Shown: one piece after another, positions 5,546-28,768 of the stretch
How the letters are laid out: the number at the start of each line of letters is the position of its first letter
Numbering within the stretch: position 1 is the stretch's first letter
NCBI GenBank assembly: GCA_046594105.1
Contig: JBKJQB010000024.1
Coordinates: forward strand, 1-63,568
Reading direction: 5' to 3'
Length of the DNA stretch: 63,568 nt
Source: Thermoanaerobaculia bacterium
GTDB taxonomy: Bacteria > Acidobacteriota > Thermoanaerobaculia > Gp7-AA8
Program-made: the position numbers and the translations under genes
The notes under the pieces: generated by a model
The model's input: the letters and a program-made list of their open reading frames with translations, nothing else
Told to the model about the DNA's origin: nothing
Database searches by the model: none

Positions 5546-6346
5546 ATGCAGACGCTGCTTGCCTTTTACGCCCTGGCCATCGGCGCAATCGTCGGCAGCT
5601 TTCTCAACGTGGTCATTCACCGGTACCCGCGTGAAGAATCCATCGCCTTCCCCGCCAGCCACTGTCCGCACTGCAACACGCCGATCCGCTGGTACGACAA
5701 CGTTCCCGTCCTCAGCTTCCTGATCCTGCGGGCACGGTGCCGCGCCTGTGCCGAACCGATTTCCGTCCGCTATCCGCTGGTCGAGCTGGCTAACGCGCTG
5801 CTCTACCTCGCCATTTTCCTGCGCACTGGTGCCACCCTCGGCTTCCTGCCGCTCGCCGCGGCTGCCTCGATGATCATCGCCCTCATCTACATCGATGCCG
5901 ACATCCAGATCCTGCCGGACGTCATCGACCTGCCGGGCATCCTGGTGGGACTTTTCGCAGGATGGCTCGGGCTGGGGACTCTCTATCCGGGACTGGTGCT
6001 GGCCACTTCCCTGCTCGACTCTCTCCTCGGCGCGCTCTTCGGCGCGTCGGTTCTTCTCGCCGTGATCGGCCTCTACTGGCTGGTGCGGCGGGTGGAGGGA
6101 ATGGGACAGGGCGACGTGAAGATGCTGGCCATGATCGGCGCCATCCTCGGCTGGCGCGCCGTGCCGGGCGTCCTGCTGGTGGCCTCCATCACCGGTGCGC
6201 TCATCGGCATTCCCGCAGCGATGCGCAGCGGCCGCGGGATGCAGCTGGCCATCCCGTTCGGCGTCTTCCTCGGATTCGCCATGCTGATCGTGCTGTTCTT
6301 CGGACAGACTCTGGCGGGCTGGTACCTTTCGCTGATCGTGCGGTGA
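5546..6346 (+). CDS. pilD: Prepilin peptidase / N-methyltransferase (peptidase A24)
   Basis: GSFLNVVIHRYP, Zn-binding CPHC and CRAC, catalytic Asp motifs (IDAD, GMGQGDVK), IPFGVFL. Confidence 0.96.
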   Translation: MQTLLAFYALAIGAIVGSFLNVVIHRYPREESIAFPASHCPHCNTPIRWYDNVPVLSFLILRARCRACAEPISVRYPLVELANALLYLAIFLRTGATLGFLPLAAAASMIIALIYIDADIQILPDVIDLPGILVGLFAGWLGLGTLYPGLVLATSLLDSLLGALFGASVLLAVIGLYWLVRRVEGMGQGDVKMLAMIGAILGWRAVPGVLLVASITGALIGIPAAMRSGRGMQLAIPFGVFLGFAMLIVLFFGQTLAGWYLSLIVR

Positions 6347-6465
6347 GGGGAAGTTGAAACCAGAAACCAGAAGGCTCGGAGCGGAGTCCGTCATCCTAAG
6401 CAGTGGACAGCGCGCGCGCTGCGCCTGAGAGAAAGAAACGGGGCGCGGAGGCAAAGCGCCGGAGG

Positions 6466-6652
6466 CGCGATTGACCTTAGCCCAGGACTTCAGTCCTGGG
6501 ACTTTGAGGGGCTCCCCCAGACGAGTCCCGGAGGGACGATTGACGATGCTTCGTTGCGACACTTTCAATCGTCCCTACGGGACTCACTCTTCAGGGGCAT
6601 CAAACCCAGGACTGAAGTCCTGGGCTAAGTTCAATCGTCCCTACGGGACTCT
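6466..6652. repeat. R4 palindromic element (CCCAGGACTGAAGTCCTGGG / CGTCCCTACGGGAC arms)
   Basis: Inverted copies TTAGCCCAGGACTTCAGTCCTGGG and CCCAGGACTGAAGTCCTGGGCTAA, plus three (T)TCAATCGTCCCT(A/C)CGGGACTC units. Confidence 0.85.
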
Positions 6653-6968: not shown

Positions 6969-8039
6969 CTACGAACTCGCCTTCTCGGCGTCCAGCGCGG
7001 CTTTGAACAGTTCTTTGTCGATGGCCTTGTCGTAAGCCGCGCGCGCGCTGACCTTCTTCGCTTCGAAGAGTTGCTTGATCGACGAGTCCATGTCGATCAT
7101 CCCTTCGCGGATGCCGGTCTGGATGGCGGAGGTGATCTGCGGCGTCTTTCCCTCGCGGACCATGTTCCCGATGGCCGGTGAGGCGAACAGGATCTCCAGG
7201 GCGGCCACGCGGCCTCCTCCGATTTTCGGCATGAGCTGCTGCGCCACGACGCCACGAATCGTTTCGCCGAGGACGTTGCGGATGCCTTCCTGCTCCCCGG
7301 CGGGGAACACGCTGATGATGCGATCCATGGTCTTGGCCGCGTTGTTGGTGTGCAGGGTGCCGAAGACCAGCGTGCCGCGCTCGGCGGCGCTCAGGGCCAT
7401 GGAGATGGTCTCCACGTCACGCATCTCTCCGACCAGGATGAGGTCGGGATCTTCGCGGCCGGCCGCCTTGAGCGCCTCGGAGAAACTGGCCGCGTGGGAA
7501 CCGATCTCCCGTTGATGGATCAGGCATTTTTTGTTCGGGTGCACGAACTCGATAGGATCTTCGATGGTGATGATGTGCAGACTGCGCGTCTCGTTGATCA
7601 GATCGATGATCGCCGCCAGCGTGGTGGACTTGCCCGATCCGGTCGGACCGGTCACCAGCACCAGCCCGCTGCGGAACTGCGCCACGCGCTTGACCTGAGG
7701 CGGCAGCCCCAGCTGGTCGATGGTCATGATCTTGGTGGGGATGACCCGGAAGACGGCACCGGCGCCTCGCTGCTGGCGGAACAGGTTGACCCGATAGCGG
7801 GCCACGCCGGGGATCTCGTAGGAGAAGTCGATGTCGCCGCTCTTCACATACTCAGCCCACAGCTTGGTCGCCGTGATGGGCTGCAGCATCTCCGTGAAGT
7901 CGGCCTCGGTGACCACGCGGTAGCGGATGGTCTCGATCTCGCCGGAGGCGCGCAGCATGGGGGGACGGCCCACGGTGAGGTGGAAGTCCGAGGCCCCGCG
8001 GTCATTCATCAGCTTGAGGAAGCGATCGATTTTCTGCAT
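6969..8039 (-). CDS. pilT: Type IV pilus retraction ATPase PilT/PilU family
   Basis: ASDFHLTVG, Walker A GPTGSGKST, TIEDPIE, Walker B PDLILVGEMRD, GTLHTNN, AIGNMVRE. Confidence 0.95.
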   Translation of the reverse strand: MQKIDRFLKLMNDRGASDFHLTVGRPPMLRASGEIETIRYRVVTEADFTEMLQPITATKLWAEYVKSGDIDFSYEIPGVARYRVNLFRQQRGAGAVFRVIPTKIMTIDQLGLPPQVKRVAQFRSGLVLVTGPTGSGKSTTLAAIIDLINETRSLHIITIEDPIEFVHPNKKCLIHQREIGSHAASFSEALKAAGREDPDLILVGEMRDVETISMALSAAERGTLVFGTLHTNNAAKTMDRIISVFPAGEQEGIRNVLGETIRGVVAQQLMPKIGGGRVAALEILFASPAIGNMVREGKTPQITSAIQTGIREGMIDMDSSIKQLFEAKKVSARAAYDKAIDKELFKAALDAEKASS

Positions 8040-8040
8040 G

Positions 8041-10545
8041 TCAGGAGCTCGCCTTCAGAAACTCTGCTGGCACCATCGATTCGAAATCCTCTTTCTTCAG
8101 CGCAGCCATGTACGCAGTCTCGCCGCTGATCTCGCCGCGCTTGACCAGATCGCGCAGCGCCTCGTCGAAGGTCTGCATGCCCAGGCTCTTGCCGATCTGC
8201 ATGGCCGAATAGATCTGGTAGGTCTTCTCGTCCCGGATCATGTTGGCGATGTTGGGCGTGCCTTTGAGCACTTCGAAGACCGCCACCTGCTTCCGTCCCT
8301 GCTTCGCCGGCAGCAGGCGCTGGGCGATGATGTATTTCAGCGACTCGGAGAGCGAAGCGCGGATCTGCGGCTGCTGATCGATGGTGAAGCTGGAGATGAT
8401 GCGGTCGATGGCTTTGGGGGCGCTGGTGGAGCTGAGGGTGCCCAGCACGATGTGACCGGTCTCCGCCGCCGTGAGGGCGAGCAACACCGATTCGTTGTCG
8501 CGCAGCTCCCCGATCACGATCACGTCGGGATCTTCGCGGAGAGCTGCTCGCAGGGCGCGGGCGAACGACTGGGTGTGCGATCCGATCTCCCGCTGGTTGA
8601 TCAGCGAATTTTTGAACGGATGCACGAACTCCACGGGATCTTCCATCGTCAGCACGTGCGCGTTGTGGGTTTCGTTGAACAGGTTGACGAACGCCGCCAG
8701 CGTGGTCGACTTCCCGGAGCCGGCAGGCCCGCAGATGATCACCAGCCCCTGGTGGTAGTCGGCGATCTCGGAGAGCTGCGCCGGCAATCCCAGCTCGTAA
8801 ACCGTCGGAGGCTTCTCCGCGATCACCCGGAACACCGCGTTATAGCCTTTGTGATCGAGGAAGACGTTCGCTCGATAACGGCCACCCTGCGGGATGTAGT
8901 ACGAGAAGTCGATCTGCCGCTTGGTCTGCAGCGTCTCCCATTGCGGTGCGGTCAGGATCTCCTTGATCATGGCCTCGGTCTGCGGTGCGGTCAGCGGCTC
9001 CGCCTGCGCCCGGATCAGATCGGCCGCCATGCGGATGATCGGCGGCTGGCCCACCGACAGATGGAAATCCGATCCGCCCTGATTGCGCGTGGCGATCAGG
9101 TAGCTGTTCAGTTGCGGCCCGCCCGCGGTTGCCTGCGCCACCAGCGCCGCAGCCCGGATCGCGCTGAGATCGGCCGTCGGGCCCTTCGATTTTTTCGCCG
9201 CGGCGTCGATCAGATCGAGAACACGAGTCTTCACGTTCCGATCGGGATCGTTGGTGGCCATCTGCGTGAGCGCCGTCAGCACCTGTGTATGAGGCATCAG
9301 GTGCAGCGCCTCGGCCACGGCGATGCGCACCTCCGCCTTCGGATCTCCCAGCAGCCGCCCCAGAGCGGGAAGCGCGCGCATATCCCCGATCTTGCCCAGC
9401 GCCTCAACCGCCGACCATTTCGCCTCGGGATCAGCCAGCGCTTCAACCAACGCGTCCACCGCACGCGGATCCTTCAGATTGCCGAGCGTGTCTGCAGCGG
9501 CCAGACGGATCCACCAGTCGTCATCCTTGAGCAAAGGGATCGTGGCCGGGACGATTCGCGGATCGTCGAACGCTCCGGCGACGGCCACCGCAGCCGAGCG
9601 GATTTCCGGATCGGCGTCCGAGAGCAACGCAATCACCGGCTCGATCAAGGCGGCGCCGAAGACTCTGAGGGACTCCAGCGCGCGCTCGCGCACGAAGCCG
9701 GCCAGCGTTTTGGAAAACTCGAGGTAGCGGCGGATGACCGGATCAGGGTCGCCCAGCCCCATCAGGATCTTCACCACCGTGGTGCGGATTCCCGCATCGC
9801 CCGAGGCGATCAAGGGCAGGAGTTGATCCACGATCTGCGGACCGGCCTGCGCTCCCAGCCGGGTCAGCCCGGCAATGATGGCCTGCTGCAGCGCGTACGA
9901 GGCGGTGGGGAGTTGGGCGACGAGGATTCCGGCGGAGGAGGGCGTGACGTTCGCGGCCAGCACCTCCAGCGACTTCTCCCGGATGAGAGGATCTTCATCT
10001 TTTGCCAGTTTCTGCCAACGGGCGATGGCCTTCTCGTCGATGGGCAGCGGAACCAGTTTCGCGATGTAGGCCAGTCGCTCTTCTGCCATGCCTGCGTCGG
10101 CCAGCTCCCAGAGGATCGGCTCCATCTGCTTGTTCACCGGCGCTTCCAGAAGGATCTTGCGGGCGATGCCCTGCATCTCCCGGATCGCCGGCGTGGACTT
10201 CTCCTCGAACTTCAGAACGGTGTCGGCCAGCCGGCGCTCCAGACCGGGCAGACCGAGCGCGAAGAGGAAGGGCACCGCGCCTCGCATGGCCACATCCGGC
10301 TTCCCTCTCGCTTCCCCGAGAAAGAGATCGACGGTCTCCGGGTCGCGCAGACGCTGCACCAGTTTGGCTCCCGCGTCGCGCACCGGACGGTCGGGTCGGA
10401 ACAGCATCCACATGACGTCGCGCGCCTTCAGTCCTTCCGCGGTGCTCAGCTGCGTGAGCATCGCGTCTCGTTCTTCCACTGAGCCGAAGCCGCGGTCCGC
10501 CGCCTTTTTCAAAGCTTCGCGGAGATCCGATCCGAACATTGCCAT
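8041..10545 (-). CDS. HEAT-repeat / PilT-ATPase fusion protein (834 aa)
   Basis: About 480 aa of HEAT/PBS-lyase-like helical repeats (e.g. DDDWWIRLAAADTLGNLKDPRAVDALVEAL), then a PilT domain (GPAGSGKST, TMEDPVE, PDVIVIGELRD). Start reassigned to ATG 10545. Confidence 0.88.
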   Translation of the reverse strand: MAMFGSDLREALKKAADRGFGSVEERDAMLTQLSTAEGLKARDVMWMLFRPDRPVRDAGAKLVQRLRDPETVDLFLGEARGKPDVAMRGAVPFLFALGLPGLERRLADTVLKFEEKSTPAIREMQGIARKILLEAPVNKQMEPILWELADAGMAEERLAYIAKLVPLPIDEKAIARWQKLAKDEDPLIREKSLEVLAANVTPSSAGILVAQLPTASYALQQAIIAGLTRLGAQAGPQIVDQLLPLIASGDAGIRTTVVKILMGLGDPDPVIRRYLEFSKTLAGFVRERALESLRVFGAALIEPVIALLSDADPEIRSAAVAVAGAFDDPRIVPATIPLLKDDDWWIRLAAADTLGNLKDPRAVDALVEALADPEAKWSAVEALGKIGDMRALPALGRLLGDPKAEVRIAVAEALHLMPHTQVLTALTQMATNDPDRNVKTRVLDLIDAAAKKSKGPTADLSAIRAAALVAQATAGGPQLNSYLIATRNQGGSDFHLSVGQPPIIRMAADLIRAQAEPLTAPQTEAMIKEILTAPQWETLQTKRQIDFSYYIPQGGRYRANVFLDHKGYNAVFRVIAEKPPTVYELGLPAQLSEIADYHQGLVIICGPAGSGKSTTLAAFVNLFNETHNAHVLTMEDPVEFVHPFKNSLINQREIGSHTQSFARALRAALREDPDVIVIGELRDNESVLLALTAAETGHIVLGTLSSTSAPKAIDRIISSFTIDQQPQIRASLSESLKYIIAQRLLPAKQGRKQVAVFEVLKGTPNIANMIRDEKTYQIYSAMQIGKSLGMQTFDEALRDLVKRGEISGETAYMAALKKEDFESMVPAEFLKASS

Positions 10546-10629
10546 GAAGGGACGGAGTATACGGTCTCTCTCCTGATCAAGGCGATGGTGTCCACCCGCG
10601 GGCCAACCCGTTTGGCCTACACTTTCGCG

Positions 10630-12339
10630 GTGGAGACTTCGGTTCAGGCACCGCTGACACGGATCGGATTCCGTCGCGACGTGCGACTGTTTCTCACCGG
10701 CCTGGTCGGCTTCCTGGTGGTCCTCATCTTCACGCTGCTGCTCCTGCTGCGGGCCAATCTGTCGAGCAGGGAGGAGTCCCTCCATCGCTCTCAGCAGATG
10801 ATTGCGGACGTGGCCGCGGAGAGCGTCAACCGCACCTCGGCCGGCCTCTCCGACCAGGGAGCGCAGCTACTCTTTCTGCGGGGACGGTTTGGAATCGCCG
10901 GCCTGGAAATCGTCCGCCGCGATGGAGGCCGGGTGGTGTCCGGCGCGCGGAGCGGCCAGTTTGACGAGGTGACCCGGCTGGTCGGGCCGGGCACGCTGCT
11001 GCTGCGCTTCGACTCCAGCCAGCGCCGCGAGGCTCACCGCGACTTTCTACTCACCGCCGCCATCTGCATCGCCGCGGCCAGCCTCGGTGCGAGCCTGCTC
11101 CTCTTCTATCTACCGCGCATCACCCGTCCCATCGAGGCCATGCTCGATCATGCCCGCGAGCTCGGCGCCCCGGGCGATCAGGAGGAGACGGCCTATCTCA
11201 TCGATACCTTCCGCAACTCGATTGCCACGCTGAAGACGCAGGAGGCCGAGCTCAAGCAACTCCACGATCGCGAGAAGACCCGCGCGGATGATCTGGAGCG
11301 GGTTACCGCTGCGCTCACCCGGAGCCTGACCTCCGGACTGATCGCCGTCGATGCCGATGGGTTCATTCTGGAGATGAATTCTGCGGGACGCGAAATCCTT
11401 CGCATCGACCCAGCGGCCCTGGTGAACGGAGGGAGGCTGGAGACCATCGTTCCCCTGACGCGTTTCCGGGGAGCGCTTGAGGATTCTTTCCGCGAACAGA
11501 GCGCGGTCAGTCGCATCGAGATCGAGGACGTGCATTCCGACGGCGACGCGGTCAGCATCGGCCTGACCACCGTCCCACTGCGCAACGAGTTTGAGACATT
11601 CCTCGGCTTTCTCGCGCTGTTCACCGACCTCACGCCGATTCGCAGTCTGGAGAGCCGCGTTCAGGACATGACCACGCTGGCCCAGCTCGGCGAGATCTCG
11701 GCGGGCATCGCGCACGAGTTCCGCAGCTCGCTCTCCACGATTCTCGGCTACACCCGACTGGCCCGGAAGGGAGGAGTGGGCGAGGTCGCCGAAGGCCGGC
11801 TGGCCAGCGCCGAGAAGGAGGCATCGCTGCTTCTGCAGGCCATCGAACGGTTGCTGGCCTTCGCGCGGCCCGTCCAGCTGCAGACGGAACCGCTCGACCT
11901 TCGAGAGCTCGTCAGCGAGCAGGTGCGCCAGTTCCACGAAATGGCTCCCGACGTCCCGGTGACCCTCTCCGGTCCTTCCGTAATGATCGACGGCGATCGC
12001 GTGCTGCTCAATCGAGCGGTGGAGAATCTGCTGCGCAATGCCGTCGATGCGGTGCGGGAAAAAGCCGACGGCGGCGGCGTTCAGGTGGCCATCTCGGAAA
12101 AACCAGTGCCCACACTGACCATCACCGATCAGGGAGTGGGCTTCGATCCATCGGAGACCGCGCGCCTTTTCCTTCCCTTCCAGTCGAACAAGCCGAATGG
12201 ATTCGGGATGGGGCTGCCCCTGGCGAAGAAGATCGTGCTGGTCCACGGCGGATCGATCCGCCTGCAGGGCCGCCCGGGCGAGGGCAGCGTCGCCGTGGTG
12301 GAGTTCGCCCCGGCTGCGCCAGCGTCCCCCACGGCGTGA
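10630..12339 (+). CDS. PAS-domain sensor histidine kinase, PilS/NtrB-like
   Basis: Two TM segments, PAS-like region, H-box IAHEFRS, N-box ENLLRNA, DQGVG, GFGMGL. GTG 10630 chosen because TACACT lies 6 nt upstream; the alternative is ATG 10585. Confidence 0.88.
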   Translation: METSVQAPLTRIGFRRDVRLFLTGLVGFLVVLIFTLLLLLRANLSSREESLHRSQQMIADVAAESVNRTSAGLSDQGAQLLFLRGRFGIAGLEIVRRDGGRVVSGARSGQFDEVTRLVGPGTLLLRFDSSQRREAHRDFLLTAAICIAAASLGASLLLFYLPRITRPIEAMLDHARELGAPGDQEETAYLIDTFRNSIATLKTQEAELKQLHDREKTRADDLERVTAALTRSLTSGLIAVDADGFILEMNSAGREILRIDPAALVNGGRLETIVPLTRFRGALEDSFREQSAVSRIEIEDVHSDGDAVSIGLTTVPLRNEFETFLGFLALFTDLTPIRSLESRVQDMTTLAQLGEISAGIAHEFRSSLSTILGYTRLARKGGVGEVAEGRLASAEKEASLLLQAIERLLAFARPVQLQTEPLDLRELVSEQVRQFHEMAPDVPVTLSGPSVMIDGDRVLLNRAVENLLRNAVDAVREKADGGGVQVAISEKPVPTLTITDQGVGFDPSETARLFLPFQSNKPNGFGMGLPLAKKIVLVHGGSIRLQGRPGEGSVAVVEFAPAAPASPTA

Positions 12340-12452: not shown

Positions 12453-12468
12453 TGGCACCTGCGTCGCA
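12453..12468 (+). promoter_or_regulatory. Sigma54 -24/-12 promoter candidate
   Basis: TGGCAC-CTGCG-TCGCA: GG-N10-GC spacing is intact, one mismatch to TGGCAC-N5-TTGCW. The predicted start site would fall close to the ATG. Confidence 0.45.
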
Positions 12469-12483
12469 AAAGGGAGCATCCTC

Positions 12484-13059
12484 ATGAACAAGCAAGATGG
12501 TCGTTCGGAAGGCGGATACAGCATCGCAGAGTTGTTGACGGTGGTGGCCATCGTCGGCGTTCTCTCGCTGGTGACCGTGCCCTCCTTCATCGGTTACTTC
12601 AATTCCAACAAGGTGAAGGCGGCCATGCGCACCTTCAGCTCTGACCTGCGCACCGCGCGGTCCACCGCGATCAGCCAGAGCCGGGAAGTCAAACTCACGT
12701 ACAAGACCGGGACGAAACAACGGGCCTACGACCTGTATCTGGGCGACCGGGCCTTCGGGACCGTTCCCTCGGCGAACTGGACCCGCCTGACCGGACCAGG
12801 TTCCAACCCTCCAAAGCCCAGCAAGATCCTCGACGATGTCGTCTATTTCCCAGCGGACAGCGTGACCACGCCGCAGACGTTCACCGACCTGGATACCACT
12901 GCGGACGGCTGGCTGGACGTCATCTTCTTTCCTGATGGACATGCCCAGCTTCCGACGGCGGCAACCTCCGGGACCATCACCATCAAGACGGACATGAACG
13001 TGCCGAAGTCTTCCTACGCAATCACCATCAGCCCCAGTGGACGCGTTCTGGCGCAATGA
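12484..13059 (+). CDS. Minor pilin, FimT/FimU/GspH-like
   Basis: Class III signal GG|YSIAELLTVVAIVGVL; LRTARSTAISQ and ITISPSGRV are FimT-like motifs. Confidence 0.85.
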   Translation: MNKQDGRSEGGYSIAELLTVVAIVGVLSLVTVPSFIGYFNSNKVKAAMRTFSSDLRTARSTAISQSREVKLTYKTGTKQRAYDLYLGDRAFGTVPSANWTRLTGPGSNPPKPSKILDDVVYFPADSVTTPQTFTDLDTTADGWLDVIFFPDGHAQLPTAATSGTITIKTDMNVPKSSYAITISPSGRVLAQ

Positions 13060-13679
13060 GCCGGAGCAGCGAGGAAATGATGAAGAGACGAGAAGCGAGC
13101 GGCTACAGCCTGATCGAAGTCCTGATCGCCATCGCCATCACCAGCGTGGTGCTGCTGACGGTGATCACCCTGTTCTACATGGGGCGGCGCAACGTCTACA
13201 GCGGCAAGCAGCAGACCATCGCCGTCGCCTCGGGCACCCAGATTCTGGAAGACCTCTCCACCATGACAGCGCAGGATCTGGGATCCAACTTCAACATCAA
13301 TGACGGCACGGCGCTCAGCACGGTCACGCTGCAGGGAGTGGCGGATGGCGTGAACGGGCAGCTGGCCTTCACCAACAGCGTCGGCCGTGACTCCAGCAAC
13401 TGTACCGTCGCTTCGACGACCCCGTACGCCATCACCTGCACGGACGATCCGAACGGGTACATGACCAAATGGCTGCGATTGTTGTCGCCCGCCGGAGACC
13501 GGAACGAAGTGCTCACCAACCCGGTGGTCGGCCTCGTCTTGCGGCCCCGCAATCCCACCGATAACGCCAAGGCATTCAGCACCGCCCGGTTCATCCGGGC
13601 ACGCGTCTATGTCTCGTGGGAAGAAGCACAGAATCGTCGCCGCTACGCGTTCTTCGACACCACGAAAGTGAACCGGTAG
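13056..13679 (+). CDS. Minor pilin, PilV-like
   Basis: SG|YSLIEVLIAIAI prepilin motif; second position in the operon. Confidence 0.8.
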   Translation: MSRSSEEMMKRREASGYSLIEVLIAIAITSVVLLTVITLFYMGRRNVYSGKQQTIAVASGTQILEDLSTMTAQDLGSNFNINDGTALSTVTLQGVADGVNGQLAFTNSVGRDSSNCTVASTTPYAITCTDDPNGYMTKWLRLLSPAGDRNEVLTNPVVGLVLRPRNPTDNAKAFSTARFIRARVYVSWEEAQNRRRYAFFDTTKVNR

Positions 13680-13691
13680 CCAGGAGCAGCC

Positions 13692-16600
13692 ATGAAACCA
13701 ACCGCGCGTCACCAGCAACGGGGATTCACACTCGCAGAGATCCTGGTCACCACGGCGATCTTCGCCGTCATCATGATCGCCGCCCTTTCGGTCTACGACC
13801 AGAGCAACCGTGTGTTCAAGTCGGGAACCGAGTCGGCGGACATGCAGCAGAGCACACGGATCGGCTTCGACAAGCTGGTGGCCGATCTGCGCATGGCCGG
13901 CTTCGACTACAACCGCGGCGGCACTCCCACGAAGACCGGGGAATTTCCGCAACAGGACGAGCAGATCGAATACGCCGGCCCCACCGCGGTGGCCTTCCGG
14001 GGGAATTTCAATTACAACACCGCCTCGTCAAACGGAAACGGGCTGGAACCAACCTTCACTCCGAAGGATCCCACCACCAACGCGGCGATCTTCCCCTTCG
14101 TCACCACCAGCGATGACGAGATCGTCGCCTACGTCACCCGTTCCGCGGACAACACCCAGAACACCGGGTCCATCTCGTTCTACGTGGACGCCGGGAAACC
14201 CCGCAATGTGTATCCCGGCGGTGCCGCGGAAGCGCTGATCACCATCAGCAGCGCTCTCTGCGCCACCTGCGGCGTCGACACCAGCAATGCCAACCCTCCT
14301 TACACGCTGTATCGAATGACCCTGAACGACTACAAGAACCGGCAACCGGGAACGCCGATCGCCGAGAACATCCGCAGCCTCAACTTCTTCTACTACACCG
14401 ACGCGAATGGCCAGACGGTGCTCAAGAACAACGATGCCACGGACATCACCGCGACCCGGAATGCCGATGGCTCCACCGTCCCGGCCACGGCCTCGGTCAC
14501 CATTTTGAATTCCGACGGCACCACGTCGACCACCACCTCGAACACCGGGGCCATCGGAGGGGCGGGACAATACGACCCGGCCAGCCCCGGCACAGCGGCG
14601 AATTTCGTCGACCGGCAGCAGCGCACCACCATCCAGTCGGTGCGCGTGAATGTGATCGGCATGAATGCCAACCCGGAGCCGGGCTATACCCAACGCACCG
14701 AGTCCATCGCCCGCATCAAAAACTACCGGCAATACGCGCTGTCCGCCTTGATCGTGCCCCGGAACCTCGGACTGACCGGGTTCCCCGAGCCCAGCAACTC
14801 CGCGCCTTCGGTTCCGGTGATCACCGGCATCTGCACCGCGCACTGCGCCGCACCCGTCCTCTGCTGGGCCGCCCCGACCGGGGGCGGACCGGTCGATCAG
14901 TACCGCATCGAATGGGACAGCGTGGCCACAGGCTCCTTCCCCAACTCGCTCATCGTGACCGATCCCACCGTCACCACCGCGATCATCCGCGACAACGGCA
15001 TCATGGATCCGTCGATCACCTGGTATTACCGCATCTTCGCGCAGAACGACAACGGTTCGAGCCCGCCGCAAAACCCCACGCCGGCCCAGCCGAAGAACTC
15101 CACCCGGCCCCTGCCGCCCGCGCCCGGCACCATCACCACAAGCAACGCCGTGAATTACGCGGTGACCGTGGGATGGGTGGCCCCCTCCAACAACGACCCT
15201 GCCAAGGCCACCATGAACTGCACCGGGGCCGGCTGCAGCACCGATCCCAGCACCATCCCATCGCAGGAGATCATCAAGTACCGCGTGTATCGCGGGCTCA
15301 CTGCGACGTTTGATCCCACCAACCCTGCCGAGAGCTCCAAAGTCCTGGCCGCTACCACCGGTGTCCAGCCGACATCCGCAGGCCCCGGGTCGCCGATCTC
15401 CTGGGCAGATTCGCCGAGCACCTCGGCCTTCCCCTCTGGAACCTGCGTGGATTACTACTACCGGGTGCAGGCGGTGGATCGCTGCTTCTCCAGCAACAAC
15501 TACAACACCAGCGGCGACCTGAACGATTCGATCAGCACGATTTCACCGCCTCTCGGTTCGAATGCGATTCTGGGCCGGACGAACGACCTCTCCACGGCCA
15601 AAGCGCTGGGGCCGGTGAATCTGAAAGTGAGCAGCGCCACCTCTGCCTGCCCAGCACCCGCATCGCTCAACTGCAAGGTAGATTTGAGCTGGTCCAAGGT
15701 GACCGCCGACAATGCCGGCAACGCCATCGGCGTCGATAAGTACCGCCTGACCCGTTACCGAAAGAAGTATCTCGATCCTGGATTCGTACTCGACACCACG
15801 TTCAATCTCACCGGCTCGCTGGACATGCCTGGTTACTCGCAGAGCGGCACTGGCCTGGTTGGAAAAACCGACACGACCGGCCCCGCCATCGACACGGCAG
15901 ACGGCGCTCCCTGGTACTACCAATATACGGTCACCGCGAACGACTGCCGGCTGGGTCTTCCCTCCAATACGGCGGACTTCCCGACGTTGTGCGCGGGCAC
16001 TCCCTCCACAGTCAGCCAGGTCGGCGCTTCGGGCGGAGGCTCCGGTGACACCGTGGCCCAGGCCTGGGTCATGAATAGTGGGGACCTTCTCCGCATCACC
16101 GCTGCTGCGGGGTTGACCATCGCGAACGTCAAATACGATGTGTTCGCCTATCCCTCCGGTACGGTTGCGGACTCGGTGACCACAACAGCCTCACCGACCT
16201 TCCCCTACGTCTGGTCCGACCGCACCGACAACCAGATCTACCAGATCCGGATCGCCATCACCGACTCCACTGGCTGCACCGAGGTCCATGTGAAGTATGT
16301 GAAGGACGAGCAGGCTGCGCCCTGCGCGTTCGGCAACGTGGCCCTCACGGCATTCACCAGCACAACCTCCGGCCCGACCCGGTCGCTTTTCGAAACCTAC
16401 ACGGTGACGAACGTAGCCACGGAGGCACTGACCTTCAGCGCGAAGCCGATCAAAGTCACATGGGCTATCCCGGCCGGCTTCGCCGCCAGCCACAGCGACA
16501 TGACTCTCGATGACATCACCTACTCACTGGGTGGCTCCGACGGAGGCGCCAATTCGGGCCCCGGAACGGTCACCCGGTCAATCCCGGCCGCAGCGATCCT

Positions 16601-16796
16601 CTCTGCGAGTTCGTCGATGACGGTCCGGCTGCACTGGACTTTCAGAAAGAACGACGACAACCCCACAACCCTGGCCGGTCAACCGCTCTCGAAGATCTGC
16701 CTCGACTACACCATCCTCAGTGAGCCAGGCATCACCAAACACTGCAACCTGGTCGGGCAGAGCGCCAGCACCACCAACCCGACTTCGTGCGATTAG
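13692..16796 (+). CDS. Giant PilW-like minor pilin with fibronectin-III-like and Cys-rich beta domains (1034 aa)
   Basis: RG|FTLAEILVTT, PilW-like QQSTRIGFDKLVADLRMAG, then three FN3-like signatures (W..P...Y.(I/V)...YYY.V.A) and many Cys pairs. Confidence 0.8.
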   Translation: MKPTARHQQRGFTLAEILVTTAIFAVIMIAALSVYDQSNRVFKSGTESADMQQSTRIGFDKLVADLRMAGFDYNRGGTPTKTGEFPQQDEQIEYAGPTAVAFRGNFNYNTASSNGNGLEPTFTPKDPTTNAAIFPFVTTSDDEIVAYVTRSADNTQNTGSISFYVDAGKPRNVYPGGAAEALITISSALCATCGVDTSNANPPYTLYRMTLNDYKNRQPGTPIAENIRSLNFFYYTDANGQTVLKNNDATDITATRNADGSTVPATASVTILNSDGTTSTTTSNTGAIGGAGQYDPASPGTAANFVDRQQRTTIQSVRVNVIGMNANPEPGYTQRTESIARIKNYRQYALSALIVPRNLGLTGFPEPSNSAPSVPVITGICTAHCAAPVLCWAAPTGGGPVDQYRIEWDSVATGSFPNSLIVTDPTVTTAIIRDNGIMDPSITWYYRIFAQNDNGSSPPQNPTPAQPKNSTRPLPPAPGTITTSNAVNYAVTVGWVAPSNNDPAKATMNCTGAGCSTDPSTIPSQEIIKYRVYRGLTATFDPTNPAESSKVLAATTGVQPTSAGPGSPISWADSPSTSAFPSGTCVDYYYRVQAVDRCFSSNNYNTSGDLNDSISTISPPLGSNAILGRTNDLSTAKALGPVNLKVSSATSACPAPASLNCKVDLSWSKVTADNAGNAIGVDKYRLTRYRKKYLDPGFVLDTTFNLTGSLDMPGYSQSGTGLVGKTDTTGPAIDTADGAPWYYQYTVTANDCRLGLPSNTADFPTLCAGTPSTVSQVGASGGGSGDTVAQAWVMNSGDLLRITAAAGLTIANVKYDVFAYPSGTVADSVTTTASPTFPYVWSDRTDNQIYQIRIAITDSTGCTEVHVKYVKDEQAAPCAFGNVALTAFTSTTSGPTRSLFETYTVTNVATEALTFSAKPIKVTWAIPAGFAASHSDMTLDDITYSLGGSDGGANSGPGTVTRSIPAAAILSASSSMTVRLHWTFRKNDDNPTTLAGQPLSKICLDYTILSEPGITKHCNLVGQSASTTNPTSCD

Positions 16797-16808
16797 GAGT
16801 AGACGACA

Positions 16809-19382
16809 ATGAAACGCACATCACGTAGAAAACGACTCCTTCGCAACGACCGAGGCTCCGCGCTGCTGGTGAGCCTCATGGTCATCGTCGGGCTGTCGTT
16901 GCTCGGCCTCGGCTTCGTGGCCATCTCGGAGACGGAGACCGCCATCGCCAAGAACCAGCTGTCGGTCGTGCAGACTCAGGCTGTGGCGGAGGCGGGAGCC
17001 AAGCTCGTCGTGGAATGGTTCCAGGATCCAGTCTGGGCCGAGCTAAATGCAGGATTGCCCTTGAATGACGGGTCGGTGAACGCCAGTCTGGCAGCCATCA
17101 AAACCAACCGGGTGATCGCCGGGACCAACCCCATCAATGGCGTGTACAAGCCAGCCGCCAACATCCGGCTTCTGGAGAAACCATACCGGCCGAAACCGGA
17201 GAATCGATTCTATGGAGACGAGAACTCGGCCGATCTGATCATCAACCGGACCACCGACATCACCACCATCGACACCATCAACAACGTGTTGCTCGGAACG
17301 ACTGCGGAAGAACGCCGCAGTGGCGAGGTCACCGAGGTCAAGATTTACGCGCCGCCCATCGTGGGTGGAACGCTGCTCACCGACGGCACCACCACGAACG
17401 CGGACGGAACACCGCGGCGTTTCTGGGGCGGCACGGCAGAACGATTCGGCGTGGCCACCATCAAGGTCACCGCCACCATGTTCCGCGACCGCACGTTGAC
17501 CGGCGCGGCTCGCATGGCAGCATCGAACATCATGGCCTCCCATGCCGTGCGGCTGGTGGTCGGAGAGATTCCCCTCCCCATCCCCGGCGGCCCCATCCAG
17601 AGCAACACCTCGATTTCGTTCGGCGGCAACTTCGTCGTGCACTGGGGCAATGAGACGTCGACGACCGACCTCACCAACAAGCGGAATCCGAGCTCGCTCC
17701 CCTGGGCCAACGCCTACGAGCGCCCGCACTTCGAGCACGGCTACGAGCCGGGCCAAAGCATCTCCCAGATTCAGCTCACCTCCGGCGGATCGGGCTACCC
17801 GGGAGGAACGACCGTCAATATCGTCGGGGGGGGGGGCTCATTGGCGACCGCCACTGCCACTGTGACCGGCGGGGTCATCACCGCGGTCACTCTGACCGCG
17901 CGCGGCACGGGCTACTCCACCTCATCGCAGCCAACCATCACCTTCACGGGGGTCGGGGGCTCGGGTGCCTCCGCCACTCCCATCGTCGGAGCGGAAGTGT
18001 GGCCCACCACGCAGGCGTCCTTCGAGCAGGAAAACTATCTCAACGAAGTTCTCAACAAGACCTTCGAGGATCCCTGGTTCGGTTCGCGAGCCGTGCGCGA
18101 CAACTTCATCGATGGGGCCACAGCGTCGGGAGTTTTTCCGCAGTGCTACCCCTACTCGGCGTTATCGAACGAAACCAGTCCTCCCGGTTCCTACTTCTTT
18201 CAGTGGCAGGCAGCCAACACCTATCCATTGTTGAAAAAGGTCGTGTTCCCGACGATCAAATACGACTTCTGGAAGAGGATCGCCTCGCAGGGCCGCGGCT
18301 ACAAGGGGATCTACTACTTCAGCTTCGACAAGGCGGCCGGCAGCGGCTACAAGAAGGGTGGAACCGGTACCACTAAGCCGATGGCGTACTGGGCCAATTC
18401 TCTCAAGACCGGGCCGGGCGGGCGCCTCGGCCCCGGCGTGTACTTTTTCGACACCGTCGATGCGATCAACCCGCAGAATCTGATCGGCGGCGCACGCACT
18501 GCCCAGTTCACCCCCGCGGAGTCGTGGAACTCCTCCGATTACGGCTCTTCCTTCCTGATGGAGGGGTTCCTCTACGCGAACAACTCATCCTTCGGCACGC
18601 AGGGACAGGGCAGCTCCGCGGTAACGATCCAGGCAAACTTCCCCGGTGAGCCGTATCGCGATGTCGGTTGCCCCCTGTTTGACCTGGCCTCCAACGACTG
18701 GAACCGTACCTGTGCAGGAGCCATTTGTACGAAGGGCGCCGGCGATGGAATCTTCACCTCCGATGACCTGAATGGAAACCAGAGATTCGATGTCGTCACC
18801 ATGCCTGCCCCGGCCTGGCTGTCGAATGACCCCGGCCCCATTGCTCATGCTGCCGGAAGCACGTACATCGTCAAGACCTGGAAGTCGCCCTTGCAGGCCA
18901 CTGCCGACTACGGCGCACCCTGCACCGTTCCGGCCGTTGGATACAACGGGACGAATCCCGGCCCCAACGACTGCTCGGAGCCGCACGAGCCGTACCTCAA
19001 TCTGATCTACACAGGCACGGCCACCGATCCGCTCACCGTCGGATGGCAACCGTCGAACGGCTCCCAGACGTTTCTGAAGAAGAACACCGGCATCACCTGC
19101 ACCGCTGCGTCCGCGCAGACGGACTGCACCTCGAACGCTTACGACCTCGATGGCTCGCAGGTGCCCATCGACGTCATCCTCGACGGCATCTTCTACAACG
19201 AGGGCGGCTACGACACGCAAGGCAATACCGCCTACTACGGCTCGCTGCTCATCAATGGTGTGGTCACCGGAACCGGTACTCCCGACATCTGGTTCGACGA
19301 GAAACTCATCAAGGGCACCTGGGCTCCCCCGAACATGCCCCGGGTCATCGTCTACAACGAACAAACGGACGAAGAACAGTAA
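16809..19382 (+). CDS. Giant PilX-like minor pilin (857 aa)
   Basis: RG|SALLVSLMVIVGLSLLG lacks Glu5 (PilX/GspK hallmark); AQAVAEAG-type PilX N-domain; long Gly/Thr/Asn-rich extracellular region. Confidence 0.8.
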   Translation: MKRTSRRKRLLRNDRGSALLVSLMVIVGLSLLGLGFVAISETETAIAKNQLSVVQTQAVAEAGAKLVVEWFQDPVWAELNAGLPLNDGSVNASLAAIKTNRVIAGTNPINGVYKPAANIRLLEKPYRPKPENRFYGDENSADLIINRTTDITTIDTINNVLLGTTAEERRSGEVTEVKIYAPPIVGGTLLTDGTTTNADGTPRRFWGGTAERFGVATIKVTATMFRDRTLTGAARMAASNIMASHAVRLVVGEIPLPIPGGPIQSNTSISFGGNFVVHWGNETSTTDLTNKRNPSSLPWANAYERPHFEHGYEPGQSISQIQLTSGGSGYPGGTTVNIVGGGGSLATATATVTGGVITAVTLTARGTGYSTSSQPTITFTGVGGSGASATPIVGAEVWPTTQASFEQENYLNEVLNKTFEDPWFGSRAVRDNFIDGATASGVFPQCYPYSALSNETSPPGSYFFQWQAANTYPLLKKVVFPTIKYDFWKRIASQGRGYKGIYYFSFDKAAGSGYKKGGTGTTKPMAYWANSLKTGPGGRLGPGVYFFDTVDAINPQNLIGGARTAQFTPAESWNSSDYGSSFLMEGFLYANNSSFGTQGQGSSAVTIQANFPGEPYRDVGCPLFDLASNDWNRTCAGAICTKGAGDGIFTSDDLNGNQRFDVVTMPAPAWLSNDPGPIAHAAGSTYIVKTWKSPLQATADYGAPCTVPAVGYNGTNPGPNDCSEPHEPYLNLIYTGTATDPLTVGWQPSNGSQTFLKKNTGITCTAASAQTDCTSNAYDLDGSQVPIDVILDGIFYNEGGYDTQGNTAYYGSLLINGVVTGTGTPDIWFDEKLIKGTWAPPNMPRVIVYNEQTDEEQ
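17826..17836 (+). repeat. G11 homopolymer inside the pilX-like CDS
   Basis: GTC GGG GGG GGG GGC = V-G-G-G-G; 11 consecutive G. Confidence 0.95.
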
Positions 19383-19394
19383 TCGCGGTTCGTT

Positions 19395-19429
19395 CGCGGC
19401 GGGCAGGACTTCCTGCCCGCCGCGTTTTT
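19395..19429 (+). terminator. Intrinsic terminator of the minor-pilin operon
   Basis: CGCGGCGGGCAGG-ACTT-CCTGCCCGCCGCG 13-bp stem followed by TTTTT, 12 nt after the pilX stop. Confidence 0.85.
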
Positions 19430-20966: not shown

Positions 20967-22589
<1,623 letters not shown>

Positions 22590-22862: not shown

Positions 22863-23759
22863 ATGGCTCGATCTTTTCCACCGGACGTGATCGTCCTCGA
22901 TACCGATGCGCTCGTGCATGCGCGCGTGGGACGGGGCGTGAAGAACCCGCAGATCATGCAGGCCAAGAGCTACCGGCTGGCGTCCGACACGTTCCTCCCC
23001 TCCGTGGTCACGCCGGAACTGGCTTCCGACGTGGGGCTGGCCGAGGCGGTGCGGAGGATGAAAGGGGAGACGGGCCGCTGGAGCAAGGCGTCGCTGCTGC
23101 TTCCTGACTCCTGGTTCCGCATGAACATCCTGGAGATCCCCACGCTGCCCGACAAGAGCGACGAGGCAGACGCCATGATCCGGTGGAGCCTCAAGCGCAC
23201 CATGCCGCTGGAGGGTTCCCAGCTCCGTCTGGCCTACGAGGTGCTCGACCGCGGCGCGAGCGGCGTTCGCGTCCTCGCCGTGAGTGCGGTGGAAAAGACT
23301 CTGGTCGCGATCGAACGAGTCTTCGAAGCGGCCGGCATCGAGATCGTCCTGATCGAGCCGGTAGGCCTGAACATCTGGAATGCCGTGACCGTCCGCGAGC
23401 CCTCCACCGCCGGGGACCGCATCTTTTTTTACGTCCGCGATCAGGACTTCACCACCGCCGTGTTTCGTGGTGGTGCTCCCCTGTTCATCCGCTCGCGAAA
23501 CCTCAATGCCCAGCGCAGTCTCCAGCAGGAGATCAAGCTCTCCGCCTCCTATCTCCGCGACACCCTGGGCACGGAGACGATCGAGAACTGTTACCTCTGT
23601 GGCAACCAGCTGGCTGCCGGACTGGCGGATGAAATCGCGACGGAGTTCTCCGCGCCGGTGCGGGTGGTGGCTCTGCGCGACTTCACCGAGCACACCCCCG
23701 AGGGTGTGGGAGCATACGAAGCGGAGCTGACTGCCTGCACGGGAGTGTTCACAGGTTGA
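22863..23759 (+). CDS. pilM: PilM/GspL-like cytoplasmic alignment protein
   Basis: Position before pilN and pilO; actin-like-fold PilM-type segments (LLLPDSWFR...WSLKRTMP). Confidence 0.7.
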   Translation: MARSFPPDVIVLDTDALVHARVGRGVKNPQIMQAKSYRLASDTFLPSVVTPELASDVGLAEAVRRMKGETGRWSKASLLLPDSWFRMNILEIPTLPDKSDEADAMIRWSLKRTMPLEGSQLRLAYEVLDRGASGVRVLAVSAVEKTLVAIERVFEAAGIEIVLIEPVGLNIWNAVTVREPSTAGDRIFFYVRDQDFTTAVFRGGAPLFIRSRNLNAQRSLQQEIKLSASYLRDTLGTETIENCYLCGNQLAAGLADEIATEFSAPVRVVALRDFTEHTPEGVGAYEAELTACTGVFTG

Positions 23760-24331
23760 AACCGATCCATCTGAATCTCGCCGCGCGCCCTCACCGCGAT
23801 TACCGTCCGTATGTCGCCGCCGTGGTGTTCAGCTCTCTGCTGATCGCCTACCTCACCGTGACGAACTTCGACACTTGGTACCGCTATCGAAATGAAACGC
23901 AGACCACACGGACCAGGATCGAGTCGCTCGATCACCAGACCGAAGAGGAGCAGCACCGCACCGACGCAGTGAACCAGCGACTGCGGGCCGTCGACGTGAA
24001 AGTGCTGGCCACCCAGACCCAGTTCGCCAATGCCCGGCTGGCCGAGCGGGCCTTTTCCTGGAGCGAGCTTCTGGATCGACTGGAGCGGGTATTTCCCAAC
24101 AACGTTCGCATCGACTCGATCGCGCCAAGTTTCGGCAAGACCGGCCTGGTGCACCTCACGCTGCAATGCGTAGCCAAGACTGGTGACGGGTTGGTCACCA
24201 CGCTCGATCGCTTCAATCGCGACGGCCATTTCGCCAACGCGTTCCCCGCCAACGAAGACCATGCCGAACAGGGATACCGTTTCCTCCTCGGCGTGGACTA
24301 CCGGCCGTCGATCGCGAGGTCGGTCGAATGA
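23756..24331 (+). CDS. pilN: PilN-like alignment protein
   Basis: IHLNLA N-terminal motif, one TM helix, coiled coil, WSELLDRLERVFP. Confidence 0.8.
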   Translation: MKPIHLNLAARPHRDYRPYVAAVVFSSLLIAYLTVTNFDTWYRYRNETQTTRTRIESLDHQTEEEQHRTDAVNQRLRAVDVKVLATQTQFANARLAERAFSWSELLDRLERVFPNNVRIDSIAPSFGKTGLVHLTLQCVAKTGDGLVTTLDRFNRDGHFANAFPANEDHAEQGYRFLLGVDYRPSIARSVE

Positions 24332-24960
24332 TCTGGCGCGAGAAACGAATCTCCCTGGCCATCCTCGCCGTTCTTCTGCTGGCGAATGTCCTCTTCTTCT
24401 TTACCTACCGGGTGCAGTACCAGAACCGGCTGCAGGATCTCGAGGGCCGCCTGCGCGCCAGTCAGGACCGCCTGGCCCAGGCCCAGCGCATGCGCACCAC
24501 GGCACAACAACAGCTTGATGGTTATCGCAAAGTGCAGCAGGACCTCCAGGCTCTCTACAACCAGCGCTGGTCGACGCAGGCCGCGCGGTTCACATCGTTG
24601 ATCATCGAGGTCAAGCGGCTGGTGGTGGCCAGCCAGCTGGTGTTGCCCCGAAGCTCCTCCTTCAGCCGCACCGAGGCGCGCACCACCAAAGAAACGGGCG
24701 CCATCGACACCGCGGTCGTCGGAATCAACTTCACCGTCCAGGGCTCTTACGAGCAGGTGCGCAGGCTGATCAATCTGCTGGAGCTTTCCAACCAGTTTGT
24801 GATCATCGACGGCATCAGCCTCGGGAGCGGGAACGACAAGATCCTGACCCTCAATCTCCGTCTGAAGACGCTGTTCCGCGAACCAACGCAGCAGAATGCA
24901 CCGCCGGCATTCGGATTCAGTGAGCCGGCCAGAACTCCCGCTCGGAATCAGGGACTGTGA
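24328..24960 (+). CDS. pilO: PilO/GspM-like alignment protein
   Basis: TM helix, coiled coil, V.GSYEQVRRLINLLE ferredoxin-like motif. Confidence 0.8.
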   Translation: MIWREKRISLAILAVLLLANVLFFFTYRVQYQNRLQDLEGRLRASQDRLAQAQRMRTTAQQQLDGYRKVQQDLQALYNQRWSTQAARFTSLIIEVKRLVVASQLVLPRSSSFSRTEARTTKETGAIDTAVVGINFTVQGSYEQVRRLINLLELSNQFVIIDGISLGSGNDKILTLNLRLKTLFREPTQQNAPPAFGFSEPARTPARNQGL

Positions 24961-25631
24961 TGGATTGGATGAGCTGGAAAACCTGGGGCATCATCGGGCT
25001 GGCGCTTCTGGCCGTCTTCGCCATCTATTCGTTCGCCGCCCCATCGGCCCCGGCGGAGTCCGCCATCGTTTCGTCAGAGACGGTGGGCCGGACTCCGGCG
25101 CGCTCGCCGCGCGTGACGGCCGCGCCGGCGCGTGGCGTCGGCGTCCTGCACAGCGAGTGGCTGGATAAAGTCACCGGCAGCTACCGGAGCGAGCGGAATC
25201 TGTTCTCCTACGTGGAGCCGCCCCCTCCCCCGCCTCCTCCACCGCCGAAGCCGCCCCCGCCTCCGCCCGACAAAGACAAGGACGGCATTCCCGACTTCAA
25301 GGACAACTGCCCTGACAAGGCCAACCCCGATCAGGCCGATATCGACGAGAACGGCATCGGCGACGCCTGTCAGGCCGGTGAGATCATCCGCAAGGTTCAC
25401 CTGCCGCCTCCGCCGCAGCCGCCGCCGTTCAGCTTCAAGTACATCGGGACCTTCGGAACGCCGTCGAGCCCGATTGCCACCTTCTCGGGCAACGGTGAGA
25501 TCGTCAACGTGCGTGTGGGGGAGACCTTCGCCGGGAAGTTCGTTCTGCGCAGCATCGGCATCGAGTCGGTGGAGATCGGATTCGTCGGCTTTCCCTCGGA
25601 CATCAAGACGCGCGTTCCTGTCGGAGAGTGA
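24957..25631 (+). CDS. PilP/GspC-like protein with a thrombospondin type-3 Ca-binding repeat
   Basis: N-terminal TM helix, RNLF, Pro-rich linkers, DKDKDGIPDFKDNCPDKANPDQADIDENGIGDAC, C-terminal HR/PilP-like domain (FKYIG...VRVGE). Confidence 0.7.
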   Translation: MMDWMSWKTWGIIGLALLAVFAIYSFAAPSAPAESAIVSSETVGRTPARSPRVTAAPARGVGVLHSEWLDKVTGSYRSERNLFSYVEPPPPPPPPPPKPPPPPPDKDKDGIPDFKDNCPDKANPDQADIDENGIGDACQAGEIIRKVHLPPPPQPPPFSFKYIGTFGTPSSPIATFSGNGEIVNVRVGETFAGKFVLRSIGIESVEIGFVGFPSDIKTRVPVGE

Positions 25632-25720
25632 CGTTTGGACCGTTTGGACCGTCAGAAGCAACGTGTGAGAGAGTGGCCCGGAACGGACACCCGCGCACAG
25701 GACTCAGGACTGAAAACGAA

Positions 25721-28734: not shown

Positions 28735-28768
28735 AACGAACTGCCTCAGCCCGCACGACCAAAAGCGA

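Follow-up and report, generated by a model that had tools for sequence, protein, structure and literature searches.

How is the tip of a type IV filament completed when the genes of its minor pilins are not followed by a gene for the tip adhesin PilY1/PilC? The question is raised by four consecutive pilin-like genes, called H, I, J and K here, in 63.5 kb of DNA from one metagenome-assembled genome (MAG) of Thermoanaerobaculia, a soil acidobacterium; the whole of this stretch is referred to as the window. The versatility of type IV filaments stems from what sits at the tip, and two of the four pilins encoded here, J and K, are of unusual size. Our answer, which builds on the gene content, domain architecture, conservation and synteny of the locus and which we hold to be moderately probable, is a PilY1-independent tip in which K serves as plug and sensor and J as an adhesin mounted on a rod, the filament itself probably being retractile. 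The genes are as follows (a slash separates the leader from the remainder of the pilin).

12484..13059, + strand: H-type minor pilin (GspH/FimT-FimU-like), 191 aa, MNKQDGRSEGG/YSIAE, Pfam GspH
13056..13679, + strand: I-type minor pilin (PilV/GspI-like), 207 aa, G/YSLIE, assigned mainly by gene order
13692..16796, + strand: J-type modular pilin (PilW/GspJ position), 1034 aa, 18 Cys, G/FTLAE
16809..19382, + strand: K-type, predicted cap pilin (PilX/GspK-like), 857 aa, RG/SALLVSLMVIVGL, without Glu5
19395..19429, + strand: intrinsic-terminator-like hairpin (19395-19424; 13 bp, 12 of them G-C, loop ACTT) followed by TTTTT

The open reading frames (ORFs) were confirmed on the + strand in the order fimT-pilV-pilW-pilX given by a first-pass annotation of this DNA, as were the unusual sizes it reported for PilW (1034 aa) and PilX (857 aa). 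The genes show tight operon packing, with an ATGA overlap at the H/I junction and gaps of 12 nt each between I and J and between J and K, and their codon-position GC (GC3 0.79-0.85, GC2 0.47-0.54) is like that of the other genes of the window. The hairpin after K is the top-scoring of 18 terminator-like sites listed in the 20 kb scanned, where 13 are expected by chance. The strong terminator said to close the operon is thus a real hairpin, but the same machine resumes 340 bp further downstream: the four pilin genes form no separate system but sit within about 24 kb of DNA that encodes a type IV filament machine.

Class III signal peptides with Glu5 are present in H, I and J (G/YSIAE, G/YSLIE and G/FTLAE), and all three proteins have the leader ending in Gly, the hydrophobic alpha1 and the Glu+5 of type IV pilins. 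The Pfam N_methyl profile scores above its cut-off in I (1.4e-6) and in J, and reaches 13.5 bits in H. The membership of H in its type is supported by Pfam GspH (PF12019), matched over the full profile (1-108) at 9.3e-10 and 39.4 bits against a cut-off of 21; in NCBIfam, H gives below-threshold matches only, to GspH, XpsH, ComGD and Verru_Chthon D. As the second gene, I takes a position fitting PilV/GspI, and its NCBIfam matches, to TIGR02523 PilV (29.9 bits, cut-off 52.2) and GspI (22.6 bits, cut-off 44.35), cover the N-terminal part only. The position of J, third and with Glu5, fits the J type; both I and J are assigned tentatively, from gene order, signal peptides and weak matches. The N-terminus of K reads MKRTSRRKRLLRNDRG/SALLVSLMVIVGLSLLG with Glu5 missing, and as the last gene of the set with a PilX_N/GspK-like N-terminus K belongs to the K type.

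A published framework describes how such sets work. In HIJK assembly, I and J form a pair, K, which is devoid of Glu5, joins and caps it, and H links the complex to the major pilin (PMC13533445). The final strand of the K sheet comes either in trans, from the C-terminus of PilC/PilY1 or MshQ, or in cis, from K itself, and where a filament has no tip adhesin, a large insert is often found in K immediately ahead of this strand (PMC13533445). K-type cap pilins whose large inserts stand in for PilY1 include Thermus ComZ, that of the V. cholerae competence pilus and Caulobacter CpaL (PMC13533445), and for cyanobacterial PilX the insert has been proposed to replace PilY1 as plug (bioRxiv 10.64898/2026.02.12.705559). 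Modular pilins with C-terminal effector modules have likewise been proposed to lie at filament tips (PMC8179133, PMC9934059). The locus agrees with this framework on every point that could be tested.

J was modelled with AlphaFold2 and 61 homologues. A predicted local distance difference test (pLDDT) of 85 together with a predicted template modelling score (pTM) of 0.46 indicates confident domains in a flexible chain, like beads on a string.

J, residues 14-68: alpha1 (AlphaFold2)
J, up to about residue 355: pilin module, then the linker GLTGFPEPSNSAPSVP (AlphaFold2)
J, residues 376-465, 481-600 and 626-763: three fibronectin type III (FN3)-like domains
J, residues 773-872 and 889-1021: two further beta-sandwich domains

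The three FN3-like units announced for PilW by the first-pass annotation are confirmed by profile and by Foldseek, but the full count is five beta-sandwich domains. Pfam gives a weak match to fn3 (presumably IPR003961 in InterPro), the J family profile aligns with a titin FN3 tandem at E 1.5e-9, and the model retrieves FN3 and cytokine-receptor chains in Foldseek with E down to 3.6e-13. The claim of many Cys pairs holds as well: nine local pairs account for the 18 cysteines, of which 13 are invariant among the 61 homologues. J is thus a modular pilin in the sense of Raynaud et al. 2021, a pilin module joined to non-pilus domains, here the FN3 and beta-sandwich units. Mean identity to the homologues falls from 77% in alpha1 and 59% in the pilin module to 49, 46, 44, 40 and, in the last domain, 37%, and J relatives of 1270-1400 aa hold about 155-270 extra residues within this last (distal) domain. 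Such a pattern would suit a conserved anchor with a rod presenting a diversifying end. Matches of the window J to the PilW/GspJ globular domain (PF16074, TIGR01711) are limited to the N-terminal helix in Pfam, NCBIfam and hhalign, and hhalign of the J profile against E. coli GspJ aligned the N-terminal helices only. When the J pilin module alone served as query, the homologues obtained were mostly fragments, without annotated PilW relatives; PF16074 PilW appears in the pilin module of two distant J relatives at E 0.0016 and 0.0035, below the cut-off.

The K model, made with AlphaFold2 and 64 homologues, reaches a pLDDT of 87 and a pTM of 0.81, the latter indicating one rigid body.

K, residues 18-72: alpha1 (AlphaFold2)
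K, residues 173-253: five-stranded pilin sheet (AlphaFold2)
K, after the sheet: PLPIPGGPIQ loop (invariant PxPxPxGP)
K, residues 318-393: two small beta repeats, optional
K, about 440 aa: mixed domain, lineage-restricted
K, residues 846-853: terminal strand (AlphaFold2), conserved

An insert of about 580 aa lies between the pilin sheet and the last strand, so that K too is a modular pilin, made of a pilin module and an insert. Residues G16-L20 (G16/SALLV, no Glu5) are invariant in the 64 sequences, while P844, R845, V846, T853 and D854 have near-zero entropy and the extreme C-terminus is among the best conserved segments. Conservation is even along the length (45-80%), save for the optional module at residues 301-400. 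Of 25 N-terminal modules from the K family, 23 match PilX_N (PF14341; best 1.7e-6), and some K relatives carry PF14341 or the source name 'PilX N-terminal domain-containing'; the N-terminus also resembles that of E. coli GspK (RG-xALLxxLM), hhalign covering the N-terminal helix only. Residues 318-393 form a Gly-rich tandem repeat with a unit of ~38 aa (…GGSGY…V.I.GGGG.GA.A.A.V.GG.VT…), which is missing from about 15 shorter homologues.

Residues 400-857 of K found only 163 representative clusters among 1.84 billion proteins, and as nearly all full-length matches share the same architecture, this domain is restricted to the lineage. No match was obtained in a sequence-profile search of the K family, as whole protein or as N-terminal module, against the PDB, and no significant one in Foldseek of the K model against the PDB. 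The best three PDB fold matches were three chains of Thermus ComZ (6qvi), the reference for K pilins with a beta-solenoid insert, all weak (E 0.02-0.13, template modelling (TM) score 0.11-0.22). ComZ as top structural match brings up the possibility of a DNA-uptake (competence) pilus, with the K insert as a DNA receptor like ComZ; K-type inserts are indeed known in the competence pili of Thermus and V. cholerae (PMC13533445), and PilT is present at the locus. We nevertheless regard this as very improbable, as the ComZ match is not significant even at its best E of 0.02, the window revealed no com genes (ComEA, ComEC, DprA), and J carries an FN3 rod for which we know of no parallel in competence pili.

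The absence of PilY1 after pilX, remarked upon at first reading, holds both in the window and around related loci. No Pfam match to the PilY1/PilC family (PF05567, which we take to be the accession of its beta-propeller) was found among window ORFs selected by length and codon bias, and K is followed by the terminator and then by the platform gene. A synteny scan with one genome per species yielded 67 syntenic loci, all of them in MAGs of Thermoanaerobaculia or Acidobacteriota. In related loci the interval from K to the platform gene is free of PilY1-like genes, and no PilY1 gene was found within +-10 kb in the 67 loci, of which five large neighbouring ORFs were scanned with Pfam. Large ORFs beside K in relatives had been considered as PilY1 candidates and were rejected, those scanned being spermidine-synthase/membrane fusions or Peptidase_C25 proteins. 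The complex could still be capped by a PilY1/PilC or MshQ-like adhesin encoded elsewhere in the genome, which would make the large J and K accessory decorations. In other bacteria the genes for minor pilins and for PilY1 may lie apart, the part of the genome seen is the 63.5 kb of the window, and some relatives have a second H-I-J-K set. We consider this explanation improbable in view of the absence of such a gene from the window and from the neighbouring ORFs scanned, and of the conserved C-terminal strand that K itself possesses, a feature of PilY1-independent K proteins (PMC13533445).

Both enlarged pilins belong to conserved families. At least 356 homologues of J (about 960-1400 aa) and at least 638 of K (about 710-960 aa) were found, almost all full length and from soil or sediment metagenomes; those that bear a name have a generic one ('prepilin-type N-terminal cleavage/methylation domain-containing', 'fibronectin type III domain-containing', 'PilX N-terminal domain-containing'). 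The window region itself was detected in soil and rhizosphere metagenome DNA. Hypervariability of the cassette across Acidobacteriota MAGs, a prospect raised by the first-pass annotation, is ruled out: J and K are conserved full-length families, with even conservation in K and a smooth gradient in J. The recurring order across the 67 loci is PilD-HK-H-I-J-K-platform-ATPase-M-N-O-P-secretin-G1-3; the machine genes are present in loci whose contigs extend far enough, in some of them other genes follow K, and PilT and a fusion of HEAT repeats with a PilT-like ATPase shift position within related loci. Two relatives have a second, divergent H-I-J-K set (L035:15578-21326 and L038:4-5220), with a J of at least 907-983 aa and, in L038, a K of 619 aa. 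Likeness between second and first sets is confined to the pilin modules and, in J, to the adjoining FN3 region, which suggests that tip cassettes are interchangeable, as in the multiple minor-pilin clusters of Myxococcus.

In four relatives, very large secreted Peptidase_C25 (gingipain-family) proteins with DUF11 repeats adjoin K; these could be cargo or chance neighbours.

L047:14034-19715, + strand: Peptidase_C25 protein beside K
L040:6355-12018, + strand: Peptidase_C25 protein beside K
L045:5479-11178, + strand: Peptidase_C25 protein beside K
L056:12913-15942, - strand: Peptidase_C25 protein beside K

The machine to which the four pilins belong is encoded on either side of them in the window.

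5546..6346, + strand: prepilin peptidase (A24; A24_N_bact 7.8e-37, Peptidase_A24 1.6e-15), syntenic in most relatives
6969..8039, - strand: PilT retraction ATPase
8041..10785, - strand: HEAT-repeat + PilT-like ATPase fusion, 914 aa (T2SSE core, residues 669-826)
10585..12339, + strand: PAS histidine kinase, directly 5' of H and conserved as its neighbour, start codon uncertain (the ORF overlaps the divergent gene)
12453..12468, + strand: sigma-54-type -24/-12 element TGGCACctgcgTCGCA, 16 nt 5' of the H start codon
19723..20931, + strand: platform protein (PilC/GspF), 402 aa, T2SSF 6e-52
20967..22589, + strand: extension ATPase (PilB/GspE) with MshEN, T2SSE 5.9e-130, MshEN 2e-16
22863..25631, + strand: four genes in PilM/N/O/P layout (298, 191, 210 and 224 aa), named by size, order and membrane-helix pattern
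25628..28207, + strand: secretin with N-terminal TPR, Secretin 8.7e-40, Secretin_N, TPR
28204-28734, + strand: pilin G/FTIAE
28757-29221, + strand: pilin G/FTLIE, GspG-like
29187-29858, + strand: pilin G/FTLAG, without Glu5

The platform ORF opens at TTG 19681; its in-frame ATG at 19723 gives 402 aa, comparable to the 401-403 aa of homologues. The three pilins at 28204-29858 are candidates for the major subunit. Features of both the type IVa pilus (T4aP) and the type II secretion system (T2SS) are found in this machine. The gene layout and PilT fit a T4aP, and the equivalog scores of the two systems in NCBIfam are nearly tied, all below cut-offs (GspF 286 vs PilC 266 bits; GspE 539 vs PilB 531 bits; for the secretin, GspD 154, PilQ 106 and MshL 105 bits). 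The third M/N/O/P gene is T2SSM_b/GspM-like by weak matches. No GspC or GspL was found at the locus, where the inner-membrane layout is split into M and N, and the M/N/O/P-like families, compared by hhalign with E. coli GspL/M/C and HofMNOP, gave insignificant results throughout. A PilA-type major pilin was not recognised at the locus, the candidate major pilin being GspG-like.

These features lead to the most serious competitor, a T2SS-like system in which H-I-J-K would act as pseudopilins in a short piston confined to the periplasm, the additional modules of J and K serving for substrate recruitment or secretin gating and not for adhesion. NCBIfam ranks GspF, GspE, GspD, GspM and GspG over their T4aP equivalents, the pilins after the secretin are GspG-like with no recognised PilA-type subunit, and the large secreted Peptidase_C25 proteins adjoining K in four relatives would suit a secretion system. 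T2SS are moreover naturally devoid of PilY1, their GspK holding the last strand in cis (PMC13533445). Against this, the scores all stay below the family cut-offs and nearly tie, the inner-membrane genes follow the split M/N/O/P layout and not GspL-M-C, and both PilT and the PilT-like ATPase are syntenic with the locus. To our knowledge, T2SS have no retraction motor, and a five-domain J rod would seem unneeded in a periplasmic pseudopilus. On balance, a secretion piston appears unlikely to us.

Other details of the machine were also observed. HEAT + PilT-like homologues of about 830-875 aa accompany the pilus locus at varying positions (L005, L012, L014, L019, L030), and the HEAT-PilT fusion is an unusual accessory motor or regulator. 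The protein in the PilP position (24957-25631, + strand) combines a polyproline tract with a calcium-binding repeat of thrombospondin type 3, and the secretin (25628-28207, + strand) extends about 265 residues beyond the secretin domain, with a faint cohesin-like match there.

The element at 12453-12468 has a putative function as a sigma-54-type promoter, proposed from its sequence. In 17 of 41 related loci, mostly those of closer relatives, a TGGCAC-N5-TCGCW element is located 55-77 nt 5' of the Gly codon of the prepilin; the background rate of the sigma-54-type element is 0.005 per 260 nt, and the window holds just one further match. Its distance of 16 nt from the H start codon would leave a very short 5' untranslated region, and the window revealed no gene for a sigma-54 activator. 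The role of sensor may fall to the neighbouring PAS kinase.

Several results weigh against a PilY1-independent adhesive tip, beyond the limited extent of genome already mentioned. For the globular parts of I, J and K, no reference family gives a significant sequence match, and the window K itself reaches no PilX_N or GspK threshold in Pfam or NCBIfam. No adhesin-type or ligand-binding domain was recognised, and chains of FN3 units may serve simply as spacers. The scores of motor, platform and secretin are slightly higher for T2SS than for T4aP. We infer, and do not observe, the pairing of the K terminal strand with its own N-terminal sheet (cis topology). Mean-field direct coupling analysis (DCA) of 174 K sequences (Neff 115) returned local hairpins and a few couplings between the insert flanks, including 266-842; in a sliding-window control the terminal strand ranks 111 of 289, and DCA was left unused as support. 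Finally, a search of RNA-seq runs for the J gene came back empty.

With these points weighed, the PilY1-independent tip may be pictured as follows. H, I, J and K would form the core minor-pilin set of the surrounding type IV filament machine and, by analogy to characterised HIJK sets, would assemble in the inner membrane, prime polymerisation and then stay at the filament tip. Without Glu5, nothing could stack above K, which would therefore cap the fibre. The last strand of K most likely returns to complete the pilin sheet in cis, and K would then do without a PilY1/PilC partner, in the manner of GspK, ComZ, cyanobacterial PilX and CpaL. J would consist of a normal pilin module trailing a disulfide-stabilised rod of five beta-sandwich domains, estimated at roughly 15-20 nm, whose last and most variable domain probably binds a ligand. 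The tip would thus be a self-contained adhesin or sensor made of pilins, with K as plug and sensor and J as rod-mounted adhesin, a role of the added J and K modules that the first-pass annotation had already put forward and that we find plausible. Transcription would start from the sigma-54-type promoter beside the PAS kinase, and the nearby PilT-type motors probably retract the filament. Tip location, adhesion and retraction are what we infer from the architecture and surroundings of the four genes.

The window contains further elements around this locus. A tRNA-Sec gene (RF01852, 68.2 bits) at 5349-5442 (- strand), just 5' of the prepilin peptidase, implies that the organism uses selenocysteine. 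The convergent spacer between prepilin peptidase and PilT is occupied by two copies of the Acido-Lenti-1 RNA motif (RF01687) in opposite orientation, at 6455-6500 (- strand, 54.5 bits) and 6605-6650 (+ strand, 57.5 bits). The region 39411-40946 (- strand) encodes a fusion of PilZ (weak), GAF and SpoIIE/PP2C phosphatase, which, with MshEN on the extension ATPase, hints at control by cyclic di-GMP in this organism. The sole other large FN3-bearing secreted protein of the window is encoded at 46006-48849 (- strand); its 947 aa combine a matrixin/M10 zinc-protease motif, FN3 and two PKD domains.

The first-pass annotation presented this operon as a candidate for an undescribed system, by contrast with modular pilins of monoderm bacteria. 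That contrast is overstated: modular pilins have been reported as widespread in diderms too, and a pilin module with IPR003961 is among the 15 most frequent architectures (PMC8179133). Nor is the system undescribed in principle: adhesin or plug modules built into the minor pilins of a diderm without PilY1 are already published, in ComZ, cyanobacterial PilX, CpaL and modular pilins. The locus founds no new class of system, and it adds little conceptually; the proteins themselves are unstudied. A bolder proposal, which we entertain as a possibility rather than expect, is an undescribed Thermoanaerobaculia tip in which the J FN3 rod and a K insert of novel fold, placed in the manner of ComZ, make up a self-sufficient bipartite adhesin/sensor under sigma-54 and PAS kinase control, with cassettes bearing unrelated K inserts being exchanged or duplicated for specificity. 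Were this true, the domain inserted in K would be new and would bind a ligand or act as an enzyme.

Compared with the core minor pilins FimU/GspH-PilV/GspI-PilW/GspJ-PilX/GspK of T4aP and T2SS, the locus has the same gene order, Glu5 in H, I and J but not in K, a GspH domain in H, a PilX_N-type K-family N-terminus, and platform, ATPase and secretin genes nearby. It differs in the size of J, about 3-5 times that typical of J-type pilins, and of K, about 3-4 times that typical of its type, in globular domains unmatched in sequence, and in the lack of a PilY1 gene after K. The four-gene cassette D-B-C-A of Verru_Chthon (TIGR02596-02600) also consists of pilin-like genes, and H, I and J weakly match D, B and C, over the N-terminal helix; scores are, however, far below cut-offs (33.8/70, 17.4/51 and 22.6/256), and K has no match to protein A.

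The closest parallels to K are Thermus thermophilus ComZ, cyanobacterial PilX (including HpsA-like proteins) and the PilK homologue of V. cholerae competence, which are diderm cap pilins without PilY1, as here, with a bulky domain between the pilin sheet and the C-terminal strand. In K, by contrast, the insert is a different, lineage-restricted domain with two small beta repeats. CpaL/TadG of the Caulobacter Tad pili is also a large pilin-like tip protein, CpaL (about 600 aa) supplying the final strand in cis; assembly does not require the middle region of CpaL, which has been linked to surface sensing (PMC13533445). Tad pili are nevertheless another filament class without an H-I-J-K operon, and no sequence relationship was detected. 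PilC/PilY1 and MshQ resemble J and K in proposed role (tip plug, adhesion, sensing) and in comparable added mass, but they are non-pilins with a C-terminal beta-propeller that donate the strand in trans, and no such gene is present here.

J resembles the modular pilins of Streptococcus sanguinis (PilB-vWA, PilC-lectin) and of an InterPro set of >1200 in consisting of a pilin module, a short linker and C-terminal modules, pilin + FN3 being a listed frequent architecture in that set. Unlike the S. sanguinis proteins, it occurs in a diderm host, its modules form a five-domain rod without a recognised binding domain, and it is paired with an insert-bearing K in one H-I-J-K set. What is new with respect to the characterised cases is this combination of an appended five-domain J rod and an inserted, structurally unmatched K domain in one set, the conservation of both families across a whole class of Acidobacteriota, and the presence in some genomes of a paralogous set bearing an unrelated K insert. 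The locus is thus a conserved case of tip pilins enlarged in both J and K, from an abundant, barely cultured soil class. It extends the recently proposed rule that PilY1-free filaments hold their plug or adhesin inside the K pilin, and the K domain of about 440 aa without structural relative and the FN3-rod pilin are targets for structural and binding studies.

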